Source of the DNA: Candidatus Peregrinibacteria bacterium | GTDB taxonomy: Bacteria > Patescibacteriota > Gracilibacteria > Peribacterales > Peribacteraceae | Direction of reading: 5' to 3' | NCBI GenBank assembly: GCA_016215715.1 | Contig: JACRIG010000072.1 | Location: 1 to 25,757, forward strand | Length of the DNA: 25,757 nt | Part shown: piece by piece, positions 1 through 4,197 of the stretch | Layout of the letters: each line of letters starts with the position of its first letter | Position numbering within the stretch: position 1 is the first letter of the stretch | Notes under the pieces: model-generated | Databases searched by the model: none | What the model saw: the letters and a program-made list of their open reading frames with translations, nothing else | Told to the model about the DNA's origin: nothing | Position numbers and translations under genes: made by a program

Positions 1-21
1 ATTGTTCTTAGCGCAAGTGTG

Positions 22-301
22 GTTGTTGGCGAATGTCGGTCGCCAGCAGCAAATTGACGATGTGCATAATCTATGATAAAAAGTACTACTCGGAATTCAC
101 AAGACGAATTCCGGGCGATCCTTTACATCAACGCTTTGAAATACAGTCCAAGATTTTTTTTCATATCTTTTTCTGGTGACAGCAATGTGCCTATATTTTT
201 GTAAGTACATTGCTGTTACCAGGAAATGTTCCTGACCCCCGCCATGCGGCGGGGATTTTATTTTTACCGCTCTCAGGTCTTCTGTGTAAAAAGACTGTGA
301 G
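22..301 (+). promoter_or_regulatory. Structured leader or putative sRNA upstream of the EhpF/GriC-like gene (five hairpins)
   Basis: Stems 22-32/40-50, 89-98/106-115, 173-190/205-222 (18 bp), 237-243/248-254 and 272-281/291-301 (one bulge). All mismatched pairs are G-U on the + strand. Confidence 0.45.
237..265 (+). terminator. Intrinsic terminator-like hairpin
   Basis: CCCCGCC-ATGC-GGCGGGG followed by ATTTTATTTTT. Confidence 0.6.
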
Positions 302-327
302 CAAAACCTAATGGAGGAGTGTCTGAC

Positions 328-1431
328 ATGAGTGATCGCATCCGAGAAGCCGCTGAAGCGCGCGATGCGCACCTGCGTAAGGTGATCGCGTGGCACTTCG
401 GCGAGGACACGGGCTGTGAGTTTTGGCTGAGCCAAAAGAAGACGCTGGGCTTTGACCCGATCGGGAAAATCCATGGGCTTGACGATCTCGTTGAGCACTT
501 CGGAAATTTCGACGGTGATCTGCACCTGCGTACGGTGCCTGCCAAAGACTGGAAGCCAAGGGGAATGGCCGAAGACCAGGGGACCATGTGGTGGACCGGC
601 GGCACGACCGGCGCTCCGAAACGGCGCTGGGGCCGAAGGAGCATGGATCCGAACAAGTCCGACTACGCCTGGGATTACACGACGTTTTCCCAGATGCTGC
701 CGGCAGAAGGGTTCCCGCACGGAGGCTCCTGTCTCTACATCGGCCCCGGCGGTCCGCGTCGGTTGCCCCGTGGCGTCGAAGTCCTCGCGCACATTCGCAA
801 GGCCGAATTCAACCTCATCGACATGGATGTCGGATGGATGAAGAATCCCAACAACACCTGCGAGAACGCCTACAAGAATGAACTCGTCCAAAGGGCCATC
901 GGAGCCATCCGTCGTGACAAGCCGGATTGGATCTTCTGTCCCCCCATCCTCGTCGAGGCCATCGGCGAGCTCATCGACTGGACGCAAACGGGCGTCAAAG
1001 GCGTGTTTGCAGGCGGTACCGAAATGATTCCCGAGATGGTCCGCAACATGATGCTGAATCTGTTCAAGGGCAAGATCCATTTCGTTCCGGCCTTCGGCAA
1101 CGCATTGGTCGGGCTGGCAGCGCCGAGGACGATCGCAACCTTCGATCAGCCGATCGCGGGACAGCGGCCGTTCTCCATCACTTATCAGCCTCTCCAGCCG
1201 CGTACGCTCCTGCGTGTCACCAACCCGAAAGACCACCGTCAGCTCGTCGAGTACGGTACGCGTGGCCGCATGGAAATCACGACCGCCACATACGAATGGT
1301 TCATGCCGCGCTTCGTTGAGCGTGACGAGGCCGAGCGTGTGGCACCGACGGATGACTATCCGTGGGATGGCGTGTGCGAAGTCGGCCCTCCTCCTGAGCT
1401 CAGGGGCGTGGGCAGGGTCGGCGTCTATTAA
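328..1431 (+). CDS. EhpF/GriC-like short adenylate-forming enzyme (PaaK/LuxE-related), 367 aa
   Basis: Motifs WHF..TG..FWL...LGFDPI, P-loop TGGTTGAPK (595-621), GGTE, VEYG.RG, PRFVERD.A.R and C-terminal GVY match the EhpF/GriC family as I recall it. SD GGAGGAG (313-319) favours ATG 328 over GTG 319. Confidence 0.8.
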   Translation: MSDRIREAAEARDAHLRKVIAWHFGEDTGCEFWLSQKKTLGFDPIGKIHGLDDLVEHFGNFDGDLHLRTVPAKDWKPRGMAEDQGTMWWTGGTTGAPKRRWGRRSMDPNKSDYAWDYTTFSQMLPAEGFPHGGSCLYIGPGGPRRLPRGVEVLAHIRKAEFNLIDMDVGWMKNPNNTCENAYKNELVQRAIGAIRRDKPDWIFCPPILVEAIGELIDWTQTGVKGVFAGGTEMIPEMVRNMMLNLFKGKIHFVPAFGNALVGLAAPRTIATFDQPIAGQRPFSITYQPLQPRTLLRVTNPKDHRQLVEYGTRGRMEITTATYEWFMPRFVERDEAERVAPTDDYPWDGVCEVGPPPELRGVGRVGVY

Positions 1432-1471
1432 CCAGATCGAAAACAACAAACAAGAAAGGAGACGATAAGAA

Positions 1472-2896
1472 ATGATCACGAACGCTCGCATCCCCATTCT
1501 CCGCTTCGGCGAAGAATATCACAGCGTCACTCAGCTTCCGGTTGCTGACCTGGGAACAGGTGAGCAGCTGGCGACGCTGAGTCAGGCGCTGGAAAGCATG
1601 ATCGCAACGGACTGCCTGCGAGGAGGAAAATTGCAACTGGCGTCGGAGACGCTCCGAAACATCCCAGTCCGCCGCCGCATCGCTATGTCAGTCGCGGCCG
1701 CGGACATCTTCCGAAACGAAACGCTCGATTGCGGCGGGGTTCCCCAGAGCCCCGACGACTACATCGGGCTGCTGGCACAGACGAGCGGATTGTCCCATGC
1801 ACTCGCACGGGCCAACACCGACCGCATCTGTACGGCACTGGTCAACACCGCAGACATCATGAAAGGACTCTCGCGCGACCTGCCACTCGAGATCCTCGAC
1901 ACCGGCCTTGGCGTGCAGGGCAACTCAACCGTCCGGCTCATTCCGCGAATTCCGGCACTGGGCTGCTGCATGCCCAACAACTCACCGGGCGTGAATGTGA
2001 TCTGGCTGATCGCACTTCCGTTCGGTATCCCGGTGCTCATCAGGCCGGGAAGCAGCGAGCCTCTCACCCCGTATCGTCTGATCCAGGCGCACATCAAAGC
2101 GGGGTATCCGCCGCAGGTGTTCGGCTTCTATCCGTGCGGTCACGAAGGAGCAAATCGCATCCCCCTTCTCACACAGGGTGCGATCGTGTTCGGTTCCGAC
2201 GCAACAGTAAGGCAGTGGGCGGGCAATCCGCTCGTGCAGATCCACGGCGCAGGGTTCAGCAAATTGTTCATCGGCGATGACCGCATCGGCGACTGGCAAT
2301 CGCTGATTCCTGCGATCGCGGACAATGTCGGTGCCAACAGCGGTCGTAGCTGCTTCGCTGTTTCCACCGTCAACGTTCCCCGTCATGGCAAGGAGATTGC
2401 TGCGGCACTGGCCGCGAAACTTGCCACGATGGTGCCGTTGCCGCTGGATGATCCTAACGCGATGCTGTCCGCCATGGCCATGCCGAATGCGGCGGCAGGC
2501 TGGAGCGCGGAAATCGATGAAGCCCTGAAGAGCGGCGGCGCGGTCGACATGAGTGCGGCGCATCGGCCTGATCGGCTCGTCACATTCCAGGGACGAACCT
2601 ATCTGCTGCCGACGGTCGTGTTCTGCGACAGCAACGCACATCCGCTCGCCCGCAAAGAGTACCTGTTCCCGTACGTCTGCGTCGTCGATTGTCCGACGGA
2701 CACTGCCTTTGCCGAGATGGGTCCAACCCTTTCGCTCGCCGTCTATACCAAGGACGCCGCGCTGAAGGGGAAGGCCCGACGGAGTAAGGCACGTCTCGTC
2801 AGTATCAACCAGCCAACGTTCAGGCTGGACCGTACCCAACCGCATGAAGAAGAACTCTTCCCACTGTTTTGGGAGCGGCTCAGCTACGTCGTGTAG
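1472..2896 (+). CDS. ALDH-fold acyl reductase, EhpG/GriD/LuxC-like, 474 aa
   Basis: PNNSPGVN, VFGSD, catalytic-Cys motif NSGRSC (Cys codon 2351-2353), EYLFP. HGAGFSK sits where hydrolytic ALDHs have ELGGK. SD AAGGAG at 1456-1461. Confidence 0.8.
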   Translation: MITNARIPILRFGEEYHSVTQLPVADLGTGEQLATLSQALESMIATDCLRGGKLQLASETLRNIPVRRRIAMSVAAADIFRNETLDCGGVPQSPDDYIGLLAQTSGLSHALARANTDRICTALVNTADIMKGLSRDLPLEILDTGLGVQGNSTVRLIPRIPALGCCMPNNSPGVNVIWLIALPFGIPVLIRPGSSEPLTPYRLIQAHIKAGYPPQVFGFYPCGHEGANRIPLLTQGAIVFGSDATVRQWAGNPLVQIHGAGFSKLFIGDDRIGDWQSLIPAIADNVGANSGRSCFAVSTVNVPRHGKEIAAALAAKLATMVPLPLDDPNAMLSAMAMPNAAAGWSAEIDEALKSGGAVDMSAAHRPDRLVTFQGRTYLLPTVVFCDSNAHPLARKEYLFPYVCVVDCPTDTAFAEMGPTLSLAVYTKDAALKGKARRSKARLVSINQPTFRLDRTQPHEEELFPLFWERLSYVV

Positions 2897-2925
2897 AAGG
2901 ACGTATTTCAAACGTTGATGTAATC

Positions 2926-2961
2926 GCCCCCTCCCGCACAGTCGCGGGAGGGGGCATTTTT
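2926..2961 (+). terminator. Intrinsic terminator of the reductase pair
   Basis: Perfect 12-bp stem GCCCCCTCCCGC (2926-2937)/GCGGGAGGGGGC (2944-2955) followed by ATTTTT. Confidence 0.85.
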
Positions 2962-2988
2962 GCAGAAAATTTCAGACTATTTTTCCTG

Positions 2989-4197
2989 TTACTCCGGCAA
3001 CATCGGCCCCGCCGGAATTTCTTCCGTGGCGGCTGCGTGTGTCGGAATCAGAACTGTCCCGAAGTGCTGCACCCACATGCCGTCCCGGATGCCGAAGCCG
3101 ACTTCTTTGTAGTCACTGCTGAGGATGGCGGCGCGGTGGGCGGGGGATTCCATCCAGGCCATCATCGCATCCCGCGACGTGCGCGCACCGCGCACGAGAT
3201 TTTCGGCCAGCAGGTAACCCTTCACGCAGAAGCAGTCCGCGCTGAAGGTGCGGTTGCGGTACCCCGCGCGTTCCATACGCTCTTTGAGTGTTTCGCCTTC
3301 GGGACTCGTGTGGTTGAAGTAGCCGCGCGACACCATGTCTTCGGCATACGACTGCGCGGACGTTTCGAGTCGGGTGCTGTACCGCAGCGGCCGCAGTGCC
3401 TGCGCAGTGCGGACATTATTCACGAGCATCATCATTTCCATCCGCATCTCCGGAATGCTCTTCGGGGGCTCGGGCGGAGGGGCGGGAGCGGGCGGCGGCG
3501 CCTTCGCAATCTCCTTTGGAGAAGGTTCGAATGTGACTTTCAGGCGCTTCGTCGAGACGACGAGGTAGAGCTGGAGATCGTTGAGCCCGTCGTTTTCCAT
3601 CCGTTCCCGGGGCGTTCCCTGCGTACTGCGTTTTATAGCCTCCGGCGTAAAGAGCCCGCGGCTTTTGAGAATCACTTCGAGTGCGTGCGACGCCTCCTGC
3701 TGCGTGAGCAATTGATTCGGCGAGAGAGCGAAGGAGTCCGGGTCGTGCGGGAAGAGATTCCACTGCGTAGCGATGCCGACGTACTTCGCATACCACGCGT
3801 CCGATGGGACGTCGGTGTAGATGGTCGGGAGATTTTCAGGCAGACGGAACGTGCGGCTGAGCATCGTCAGGTACTCCGCGCGCGTGACGGCCTCTTCCGG
3901 AAACACGCGGTGTTCGCTGTCTGCCTCTACGATGCCCTCGTGTTCCGCAGCTCTCATGTACGGGTCGAACCATGCATCTGCGGGGAGATCCGCGAACTGC
4001 TTTCCTGAGTCGTAGGAGGGGAGCGCTGCACTGCGCGACAGCAGCAGCGAGGTCGCGGCCTGCGCTCTGCTGACTGTCTCGCCGCCCGCGGGAGCGGCTG
4101 CTCCCATGAGGAGCGGCAGTATCATCATGATCAACCCGATGAGTGCAATACGCCGTTTTGGCATTGTTTTTGTGTCTGAAGGGTATATTTCCTCCAC
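2989..4197 (-). CDS. Secreted protein with S-layer homology (SLH) repeats, Pro-rich linker and C-terminal CAP (SCP) domain
   Basis: Signal-like MPKRRIALIGLIMMILPLLMGAAA (alternative start ATG 4164). SLH motifs FADLPADAWF...TRAE and YTDVPSDAWY. CAP motifs YFNHTSPEG, AENL, WMESPAHRAAIL, VGFG. Confidence 0.85.
   Translation of the reverse strand: MEEIYPSDTKTMPKRRIALIGLIMMILPLLMGAAAPAGGETVSRAQAATSLLLSRSAALPSYDSGKQFADLPADAWFDPYMRAAEHEGIVEADSEHRVFPEEAVTRAEYLTMLSRTFRLPENLPTIYTDVPSDAWYAKYVGIATQWNLFPHDPDSFALSPNQLLTQQEASHALEVILKSRGLFTPEAIKRSTQGTPRERMENDGLNDLQLYLVVSTKRLKVTFEPSPKEIAKAPPPAPAPPPEPPKSIPEMRMEMMMLVNNVRTAQALRPLRYSTRLETSAQSYAEDMVSRGYFNHTSPEGETLKERMERAGYRNRTFSADCFCVKGYLLAENLVRGARTSRDAMMAWMESPAHRAAILSSDYKEVGFGIRDGMWVQHFGTVLIPTHAAATEEIPAGPMLPE

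Follow-up and report, generated by a model that had tools for sequence, protein, structure and literature searches.

What do two adjacent genes, one for a short adenylating enzyme and one for a protein of the aldehyde dehydrogenase (ALDH) fold, do in a bacterium of the candidate phyla radiation (CPR), and how did they come to lie there? The window studied here, a stretch of 25,757 nucleotides, is one whole contig (JACRIG010000072.1) of the Peribacteraceae assembly GCA_016215715.1, labelled G000, from a tiny, host-dependent bacterium of groundwater, and the region in question comprises two co-directional genes on its plus strand, ORF1 and ORF2. The pair is likely to constitute a two-protein carboxylic acid reductase of the GriC/GriD (EhpF/EhpG) type, independent of coenzyme A (CoA) and of a carrier, as judged by homology, fold and active-site residues. 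An earlier note, made from the letters of the sequence, had proposed this same type, and the sequence features on which it drew were all found at their positions. The cassette, 2.6 kb in size, has the following features.

155–272, plus strand: structured 5′ leader RNA motif (covariance model, covariation), with a long hairpin at about 169–226 as its core
237–264, plus strand: terminator-like hairpin and T-tract within the leader, a candidate attenuator (CCCCGCC-ATGC-GGCGGGG, then ATTTTATTTT)
313–319, plus strand: Shine-Dalgarno (SD) sequence GGAGGAG of ORF1 (sequence reading)
328–1431, plus strand: ORF1, predicted GriC/EhpF-type truncated ANL adenylating enzyme, 367 aa (homology, fold)
1456–1461, plus strand: SD sequence AAGGAG of ORF2 (sequence reading)
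1472–2896, plus strand: ORF2, predicted GriD/EhpG-type ALDH-fold reductase, 474 aa (Pfam Aldedh, GriD orthologue)
2926–2961, plus strand: intrinsic terminator of the two-gene operon, a 12-bp stem (11 GC pairs) at 2926–2955 followed by ATTTTTG

ORF1 starts with ATG at 328 and stops with TAA at 1429–1431, and ORF2 extends from ATG at 1472 to TAG at 2894–2896, with a spacing of 40 nt between the two genes. Position 328 was taken as the start of ORF1 because a GTG at 319 falls within the SD sequence, and because homologues begin with MSD. The pair is closed by its own terminator, as had been noted earlier, with a GC-rich stem and a T-tract. A frame of 466 aa on the minus strand (97–1497), antisense to ORF1, was rejected as a gene and represents a shadow ORF of a GC-rich gene; further overlapping frames are shadow ORFs too (the cassette region is 60% GC).

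ORF1, a putative truncated adenylating enzyme

Searches of Pfam and NCBIfam with ORF1 matched no model. Against the sequences of the PDB, residues 6–358 of ORF1 aligned with residues 9–353 of the 366 residues of EhpF (E 3e-21), at an identity of about 22–28%, and a profile of 36 members of the ORF1 family matched EhpF at 3.6e-90, with PaaK as the next family at 3e-9. Identity to a Streptomyces GriC orthologue was 34% (E 7e-51). The AlphaFold model of ORF1 (predicted local distance difference test, pLDDT, 94) gave EhpF (3hgv) as its top fold match, with template modelling (TM) scores of 0.77/0.82, and PaaK enzymes came next in the ranking, matched in their N-terminal domain alone (TMt 0.55–0.59). 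Since the alignment runs to the C-terminus of EhpF and PaaK is matched in the N-terminal domain only, ORF1 lacks the C-terminal domain of ANL enzymes. The end-to-end alignment with EhpF thereby agrees with the earlier description of a short adenylation enzyme of 367 residues with the motif TGGTTGAPK.

This motif, the P-loop (A3), occupies residues 90–98 (nt 595–621), and an ERD motif lies at residues 331–333 (nt 1318–1326). Residues G91-G92-T93, G95, P97 and E331-R332-D333 are conserved throughout the family, and T94 in most members; of 53 sequences of the family, 90% or more keep the P-loop and ERD residues. The P-loop of ORF1 is preceded by MWW at the place where EhpF carries VYES, so that the difference pointed out in the earlier note, WW-T in place of YES, was correctly read.

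ORF2, an ALDH-fold protein lacking the general base

ORF2 matched Pfam Aldedh with 41.5 bits (cut-off 23), and among the NCBIfam models only ALDH equivalogs far under their cut-off were found. The GriD/EhpG-type label given to it here was set by comparison with the GriD orthologue adjoining GriC in the Streptomyces locus L008 (27% identity, E 2e-26). Matches to solved ALDHs were weak (1e-8 by sequence, 3e-20 by family profile), which would place ORF2 in a subfamily without a solved structure of its own; its model (pLDDT 92.6) was matched by generic ALDH folds at TM 0.74–0.79.

Alignment with KauB identified Asn170 (nt 1979–1981) as the oxyanion Asn and Cys294 (nt 2351–2353) as the catalytic Cys, and placed His258 (nt 2243–2245) at the position of the general-base Glu. 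The Cys is the last residue of a GRSC motif (nt 2342–2353), and IHGAGFSK occupies the place of ELGGKS in ALDHs. Both Cys294 and Asn170 are present in 121/121 sequences of the ORF2 family. At the general-base position, Glu268 in ALDH numbering, His is found in 120 of these 121 and Arg in the GriD orthologue. The catalytic Cys and the missing ELGG Glu remarked upon earlier are thus properties of the family as a whole. The family also has a conserved C-terminal PHE(G/E)N-LF motif with an invariant His458, and of the ALDH fold it keeps the elements that bind NAD(P), namely FG(S/D)xxT at 240–245, an invariant E396 and, in most members, F399. Across the family, the position of ALDH Glu195 is occupied by Ser, Arg, Lys or Thr. 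In ALDHs such residues at this position favour NADP(H), which suggests that the cofactor of ORF2 may be NADPH.

A pair maintained across phyla

Homologues of ORF1 and ORF2 are adjacent in all nine distinct close loci (including L002/L003, L004, L005/L006, L009, L010, L011 and L015). About 45 close homologues of ORF1 were found (48–73% identity), all of them metagenomic, and on contigs long enough to check, every one of them is followed next by a homologue of ORF2; some 27 pairs of homologues come from contigs of matching size, which suggests that both lie on the same contig. Adjacent pairs also occur in a Planctomyces metagenome-assembled genome (MAG; L012), in Verrucomicrobia (L014), in Streptomyces (L008) and on a haloarchaeal plasmid (L025). 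The two genes are not paired by chance.

The surroundings of the distant pairs include pyrroloquinoline quinone (PQQ)-type propellers with the Verrucomicrobia pair, and an iron-type alcohol dehydrogenase (Fe-ADH) with the pair in L007. On plasmid 2 of Halalkalicoccus jeotgali (L025, 4493–8551), an EhpF-like gene and an ALDH-family gene follow a sodium:solute symporter gene, with a short-chain dehydrogenase/reductase (SDR) and an IclR regulator nearby, i.e. a stand-alone archaeal pair in an uptake or catabolic setting. A homologue of ORF2 (60% identity) on a 1.25 Mb contig (L013, 10001–11422) is located behind a SnoaL-like gene and has no adjoining adenylase; it may be a reductase without partner, or its partner may be encoded elsewhere.

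Only 295 of 1.84 billion cluster representatives, all of which were searched, matched the adenylase at E≤1e-10, so that its family is a small one. Two distant EhpF-like adenylases, P0254 (824 aa) and P0320 (725 aa), are fusions to a class-III aminotransferase or a zinc-type alcohol dehydrogenase (Zn-ADH), and may be read as Rosetta-stone links of the adenylase family to aldehyde-consuming steps. In the Streptomyces vilmorinianum locus L008, the ORF1 homologue P0046 is found together with a type II dehydroquinate synthase (DHQS), a DeoC aldolase, an aspartokinase, MelC1 and a tyrosinase. These genes make up the grixazone set, and on that basis the adenylase and the ALDH-type gene directly after it were taken as GriC/GriD orthologues. 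According to the account in PMC10179220, which cites Suzuki et al. 2007, GriC makes the acyl-AMP of 3-amino-4-hydroxybenzoate (3,4-AHBA) and GriD reduces this acyl-AMP to the aldehyde. The literature search for further characterised members turned up only citations of GriC/GriD, and RefSeq names some plasmid-borne Streptomyces members “arylcarboxylate reductase”.

Proposed reaction and alternative explanations

A GriC/GriD-like reductive function is assigned to the pair because ORF1 belongs to the EhpF family by both sequence and fold, Cys294 and Asn170 of ORF2 are invariant, the general-base Glu is replaced, and the pairing is conserved. ORF1, as an ANL enzyme reduced to its N-terminal domain, would convert a carboxylic acid and ATP to acyl-AMP, and the acyl group would then move to Cys294 of ORF2, a protein in which thiol nucleophile and oxyanion Asn are both preserved. 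With His in place of the water-activating Glu, the resulting thioester would escape hydrolysis, and its reduction by NAD(P)H, in all probability NADPH, would set free the aldehyde. The chemistry, the direction and the cofactor of this scheme are what we infer. For a phenazine as substrate there is no support beyond the resemblance to the family, and no finding points to the other roles raised in the earlier note, i.e. detoxification, an aldehyde signal or a lipid precursor.

Several points weigh against this assignment. Identity to the sole characterised relatives is low (34% and 27% to the GriC and GriD orthologues, about 22–28% to EhpF), and the activity of members of this particular clade is predicted from homology. 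ANL enzymes normally need a Lys of the C-terminal domain, absent here, for adenylation. In the 85%-complete assembly no Fe-ADH, Zn-ADH or aldo-keto reductase was found, and matches to SDRs are sub-threshold only. With no user found for it in the genome, the reactive aldehyde would be the final product, and this is odd in a minimal cell; otherwise a host might use it, or it might cyclise or react spontaneously, or the pair might run in reverse. A prediction of the interaction between ORF1 and ORF2, made without controls, scored 0.00 and weighs neither for nor against binding.

Running in reverse, the pair would oxidise an aldehyde on Cys294 with NAD(P)+, pass the thioester to AMP, and let ORF1 convert acyl-AMP and pyrophosphate (PPi) to acid and ATP, thus providing CoA-free energy conservation at the substrate level for an energy-poor fermenter. 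In favour of this, a thioester made by oxidation could not be hydrolysed with the general-base Glu replaced, and would need an acceptor; the lack of an aldehyde-consuming enzyme in the assembly also fits. Moreover, the overall reaction is by estimate near equilibrium, and the AMP-forming acetyl-CoA synthetase is reported to run backwards in Syntrophus. However, we know of no precedent for an acyl-AMP-forming ALDH, and the fusions and neighbours seen in the wider family consume aldehydes (aminotransferase, Zn-ADH, Fe-ADH). As GriC/GriD also act reductively in the account of PMC10179220, we consider the reverse direction very unlikely. Equally little credence is given to a non-reductive acyl transfer, in which ORF1 would adenylate an acid and ORF2 would serve as Cys-thioester carrier or transferase to an amine or hydroxyl group, e.g. 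of the cell surface. Several homologous cassettes do lie in surface-glycan or variable islands, the pair in the window lies beside a gene for an SLH-CAP surface protein, and the missing aldehyde consumer would be explained as well. Yet ORF2 retains the NAD(P)-binding elements of ALDHs, and the flanks differ in each genome, so that no partner related to an acceptor is conserved.

A fatty acid reductase of the LuxE/LuxC type, turning lipids scavenged from the host into fatty aldehydes for the formation of ether lipids, waxes or alkanes, would follow an identical reaction logic, and CPR bacteria depend on host lipids. The ORF2 homologue of L010 has a weak match to Pfam LuxC (E 6e-4), and some LuxC- or LuxE-tagged members occur in ESM Atlas neighbour clusters. 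We nevertheless regard this explanation as improbable, given that ORF1 does not match Pfam LuxE (PF04443) nor ORF2 LuxC (PF05893), that no Lux protein is among the PDB matches listed for either, by sequence or by fold, that no luxD, luxAB or lipid genes adjoin the pair, and that the characterised relatives use aromatic acids; the distant link to LuxE/LuxC drawn in the earlier note is weak on the same grounds. Least credible, and largely refuted, is an ordinary PaaK phenylacetate-CoA ligase beside an ordinary aldehyde-oxidising ALDH, as catabolic neighbours with separate substrates. PaaK is the second-best neighbour of ORF1 in sequence and structure, and ORF2 matches generic ALDHs, but ORF1 lacks the C-terminal CoA-ligase domain and its match to EhpF surpasses that to PaaK by about 80 orders of magnitude, the hydrolytic Glu is absent in all 121 members of the ORF2 family, and the pair is kept as a unit across phyla while the flanks change. 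Reduction of an acid to an aldehyde by the two proteins remains the preferred assignment.

A conserved leader RNA

Seven distinct cassettes share a hairpin of about 20 bp (169–226 in the window) ahead of ORF1, and they come both from the phylum of the window and from that of the Oligoflexia/Bdellovibrionales copies. A covariance model, R1, matched upstream of ORF1 in the window and in L015, L002, L005, L009/L028, L010 and L011, with 66–102 bits on the plus strand versus at most 39 bits on the minus strand. Outside the window, the leader motif lies at the following positions.

L015, 5296–5417: leader motif
L002, 9828–9944: leader motif
L005, 9828–9947: leader motif
L009, 9851–9956: leader motif
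L010, 5841–5950: leader motif
L011, 375–483: leader motif

In the leader hairpin 95.8% of cells are paired and nine pairs have changed on both sides, a result reached by 0/500 shuffles; slid controls gave a pairing of 25–56%. RNAalifold returns the same helix, and the leader folds with −73.2 kcal/mol (z −8.3). Model R1 found no match in L004, in the loci of Planctomycetes-Verrucomicrobia-Chlamydiae (PVC) type, in the Streptomyces locus or in the archaeal locus. A scan of positions 1–3100 with Rfam at permissive E-values yielded chance-level matches to microRNAs and small RNAs only, and no known riboswitch in the leader. An integron attC site or repeat element was considered for the hairpin and rejected: the motif is unique in the genome and travels upstream of genes, and the far better score on the plus strand as well as the presence of G-U pairs further rule out this reading.

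The second hairpin (237–264) lies about 60 nt before the start codon, and hairpins in the same place, with a weaker T-rich tail, are found in L002 and L005. The leader is a candidate for a new cis-regulatory RNA, and control by attenuation, including the 237–264 hairpin, is possible. The operon is a self-contained accessory cassette, in which a leader with a terminator-like hairpin is followed by two genes, each behind an SD sequence, and then by a strong terminator.

An insertion in the ribosomal spc operon

SecY encoded in the window is 72–75% identical to that of Peribacteraceae/Peregrinibacteria MAGs, and the assembly measures 0.70 Mb at 85% completeness, relatives having 0.7–1.9 Mb, in line with the CPR-like genome surmised earlier. 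Downstream of the cassette lie the SLH-CAP gene, on the opposite strand, rplO and secY. An independent groundwater contig, L015, is closely related to the window (SecY 97%, L15 90% and SLH-CAP 87% identical) and shows the order L16...L18-S5-[ORF1-ORF2]-SLH-CAP(-)-L15-SecY-Adk-Map; there is no L30 gene between S5 and L15 in L015. In G000 itself, contig C37 (1.2 kb; 1236 bp) carries L18 and S5 and ends at the stop codon of S5. On account of the synteny with L015 and of this end of C37, the gene upstream of the cassette is rpsE rather than part of a biosynthetic cluster, and the cassette is located in the rpsE-rplO gap of the spc ribosomal operon. About 100 nt are absent between C37 and the window, and these include a short stretch also matching contig C4, which suggests that a short repeat caused the assembly break after rpsE. 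The match, 38 nt of the missing stretch as read in L015, is to C4 (4478–4514) in reverse, and the break falls at the end of C37 and the start of C47.

These data bear on three points of the earlier note. No phz, gri or lux genes flank the pair, as it had stated for the window, and upstream, seen through L015 and C37, there is neither a phenazine nor another biosynthetic cluster. An assembly chimera, which it had envisaged as an artefact, is excluded, as L015 has the same arrangement.

Among eight other Peribacteraceae genomes in which the region upstream of L15 was compared (L016–L023), the S5-L15 gap measures 1–4 kb in the six where S5 lies within the region, an SLH-CAP homologue is present in 4/8, and the cassette in 0/8. 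Because the gap of the relatives is this wide and free of the cassette, the latter represents an insertion specific to this lineage, at a site where the spc operon was open beforehand. The composition of the cassette gives no clear foreign signal: its GC content is 0.606 versus 0.557 for the genome, GC at third codon positions is like that of secY, and its tetranucleotide distance lies at the 90th percentile. Among sequencing runs, the locus was found in one DNA run, probably the source sample, and in no RNA run; Logan contigs cover the locus at an even depth of 4.7–6.9, which is not independent support.

Distribution, horizontal transfer and mosaic structure

No homologue of ORF1 was detected in 40 relatives, 24 of them of the same family, nor in any of 400 further genomes of Patescibacteria species (338 of which are at least 90% complete). 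The cassette is rare in Patescibacteria. The earlier note, which had called for such a survey, had missed the rarity and the horizontal exchange of the cassette, and likewise its RNA leader, its site in the spc operon and where its nearest relatives occur. Another Peribacteraceae contig, L002, with flanking genes 67–84% identical to G000, has the cassette at a different locus. The nearest relatives are found not in antibiotic producers but in G041 and G042, two MAGs of 3.4 and 4.1 Mb that bear the labels Oligoflexia and Bdellovibrionales; in the phylum of G041, 4/124 genomes have a homologue of ORF1. ORF1 of G041 and G042 is 72% and 69% identical to that of the window, versus only 36–43% for SecY, which shows transfer of the cassette across phyla. 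The flanks of the cassette in L004 and L005 are rich in defence genes (TIR, SMODS, AbiEii-like, MmeI-type restriction-modification, SocA/Panacea, Fic), and fit insertion into variable genomic islands. A function in defence, prompted by these flanks, was rejected since flanks differ everywhere, and PADLOC models had no match to ORF1 or ORF2 at E up to 1.

The cassette and its flanks differ in their relationship to L015 (window 336–3060 compared with L015 5480–8180). Identity at the DNA level is 85–100% in the leader up to nt 335, about 60% in ORF1, 82–95% at nt 1500–1620 (the start of ORF2), about 68% in the rest of ORF2, and about 90% in the flanks from nt 3060 on. The corresponding dN/dS values by the Nei-Gojobori method (NG86) are 0.39/1.37 for ORF1, 0.24/1.09 for ORF2 and 0.014–0.07/0.5–0.73 for the flanks. 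In the tree of ORF1, the L015 copy groups with those of L002 and of Peregrinibacteria CG10 in a clade with 100/100 support, and the window lies outside. Forcing the window and L015 together, a grouping chosen from synteny, independently of the ORF1 tree, although its test came when the trees were already known, costs 126 log-likelihood units (approximately unbiased, AU, test, p 2e-6); a grouping of the ORF1 of the window with the whole of clade A was not rejected (p 0.124). In the tree of ORF2, window and L015 are sisters (98/93), with a signal residing largely in the first 60 residues, and without these residues the placement relative to L015 was not separated (AU p 0.256). Among the tree results, the discordance of ORF1 with ORF2 and the flanks alone is firm. 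Read most simply, it means that an allele of the other clade, to which the Oligoflexia/Bdellovibrionales copies also belong, took the place of the adenylase gene. Most of ORF2 may also have been exchanged, or may simply evolve fast. The ORF1 allele of L015 (5472–6578) has a deviant P-loop, TGGTLGDPK, and its clade has a long stem branch of 0.58 substitutions per site, for which reasons the function of alleles of this type may have shifted.

A Peribacteraceae lineage would thus have acquired the cassette horizontally, into the rpsE-rplO gap, and exchanged its adenylase allele later. It is tempting to go further and to see in the cassette a mobile, riboregulated acid-to-aldehyde module common to host-dependent CPR bacteria and Oligoflexia/Bdellovibrionales, with a leader that senses the acid or aldehyde as a riboswitch or attenuator, and with adenylase swaps retuning it to one or another host- or prey-derived carboxylate, but we hold this to be unlikely as a whole. 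A bolder variant would have such a module work in reverse, with ATP formed from aldehyde, AMP and PPi.

Significance and comparison with known systems

To our knowledge, characterised two-protein carboxylate reductases come from two antibiotic pathways only. Here, what would be the machinery of such pathways is stripped down to two genes that carry their own regulation, and the bacterium that harbours it has hardly any metabolism itself. ORF2 is the only match to Pfam Aldedh in the assembly, and there is no match to Pfam AMP-binding, a model for which ORF1 itself falls below threshold. As the assembled 85% of the genome holds no more than this, the pair would have to act on an acid derived from the host or the environment. 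With 2.6 kb and no need for a carrier protein or phosphopantetheinylation, the cassette should be easy to express and might serve as a biocatalyst, and a screen for ligands of its conserved leader RNA could lead directly to the substrate. The sharing of the cassette between CPR bacteria and Oligoflexia/Bdellovibrionales, together with the adenylase swap, shows that CPR genomes actively exchange accessory metabolic modules, even within a ribosomal protein operon.

The type of enzyme is already known; what distinguishes this copy is that it forms a stand-alone cassette, with a conserved RNA leader of its own, at a site among ribosomal protein genes. The pair resembles GriC/GriD of Streptomyces griseus, compared through the S. 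vilmorinianum pair of L008, in that an adenylase of about 350–370 aa, without ANL C-terminal domain, is directly followed by an ALDH-fold protein of about 460–475 aa. P-loop, ERD motif, catalytic Cys and oxyanion Asn are common to both, and the general-base Glu is found in neither. Unlike GriC/GriD, the pair in the window is not surrounded by a 3,4-AHBA pathway (no GriH, GriI, GriE or GriF), has His instead of Arg at the Glu268 position of ORF2, and comes with a leader RNA of its own, in a CPR bacterium of 0.7–0.8 Mb and not an antibiotic-producing actinomycete. EhpF/EhpG belong to the D-alanylgriseoluteic acid phenazine cluster of Pantoea agglomerans, and EhpF, with structures 3HGU, 3HGV and 3L2K, provides the full-length alignment and the best fold for ORF1. 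It differs by its identity of only about 22–28% and by YES in place of WWT, and no phz or ehp genes lie by the pair in the window. Type I carboxylic acid reductases of Nocardia/Mycobacterium, with adenylation, peptidyl carrier protein and reductase domains (A-PCP-R), and LuxC/LuxE carry out the net reaction predicted for the pair, of acid, ATP and NADPH to aldehyde. Carrier domain, phosphopantetheine and SDR-type reductase domain of the former are lacking here, as are Pfam matches to the latter.

Nearer than GriC/GriD are the uncharacterised EhpF/EhpG-like pairs of Planctomycetota and Verrucomicrobiota (L007, L012, L014), with 37–41% identity to ORF1 and 39–45% to ORF2; His258 and the C-terminal PHE(G/E)N-LF motif are found in them too. 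These pairs belong to larger conserved gene sets, often with an alcohol dehydrogenase (Fe-ADH) and PQQ-type beta-propeller proteins, and have no leader motif, whereas the CPR/Oligoflexia clade is cut down to two genes and a leader.

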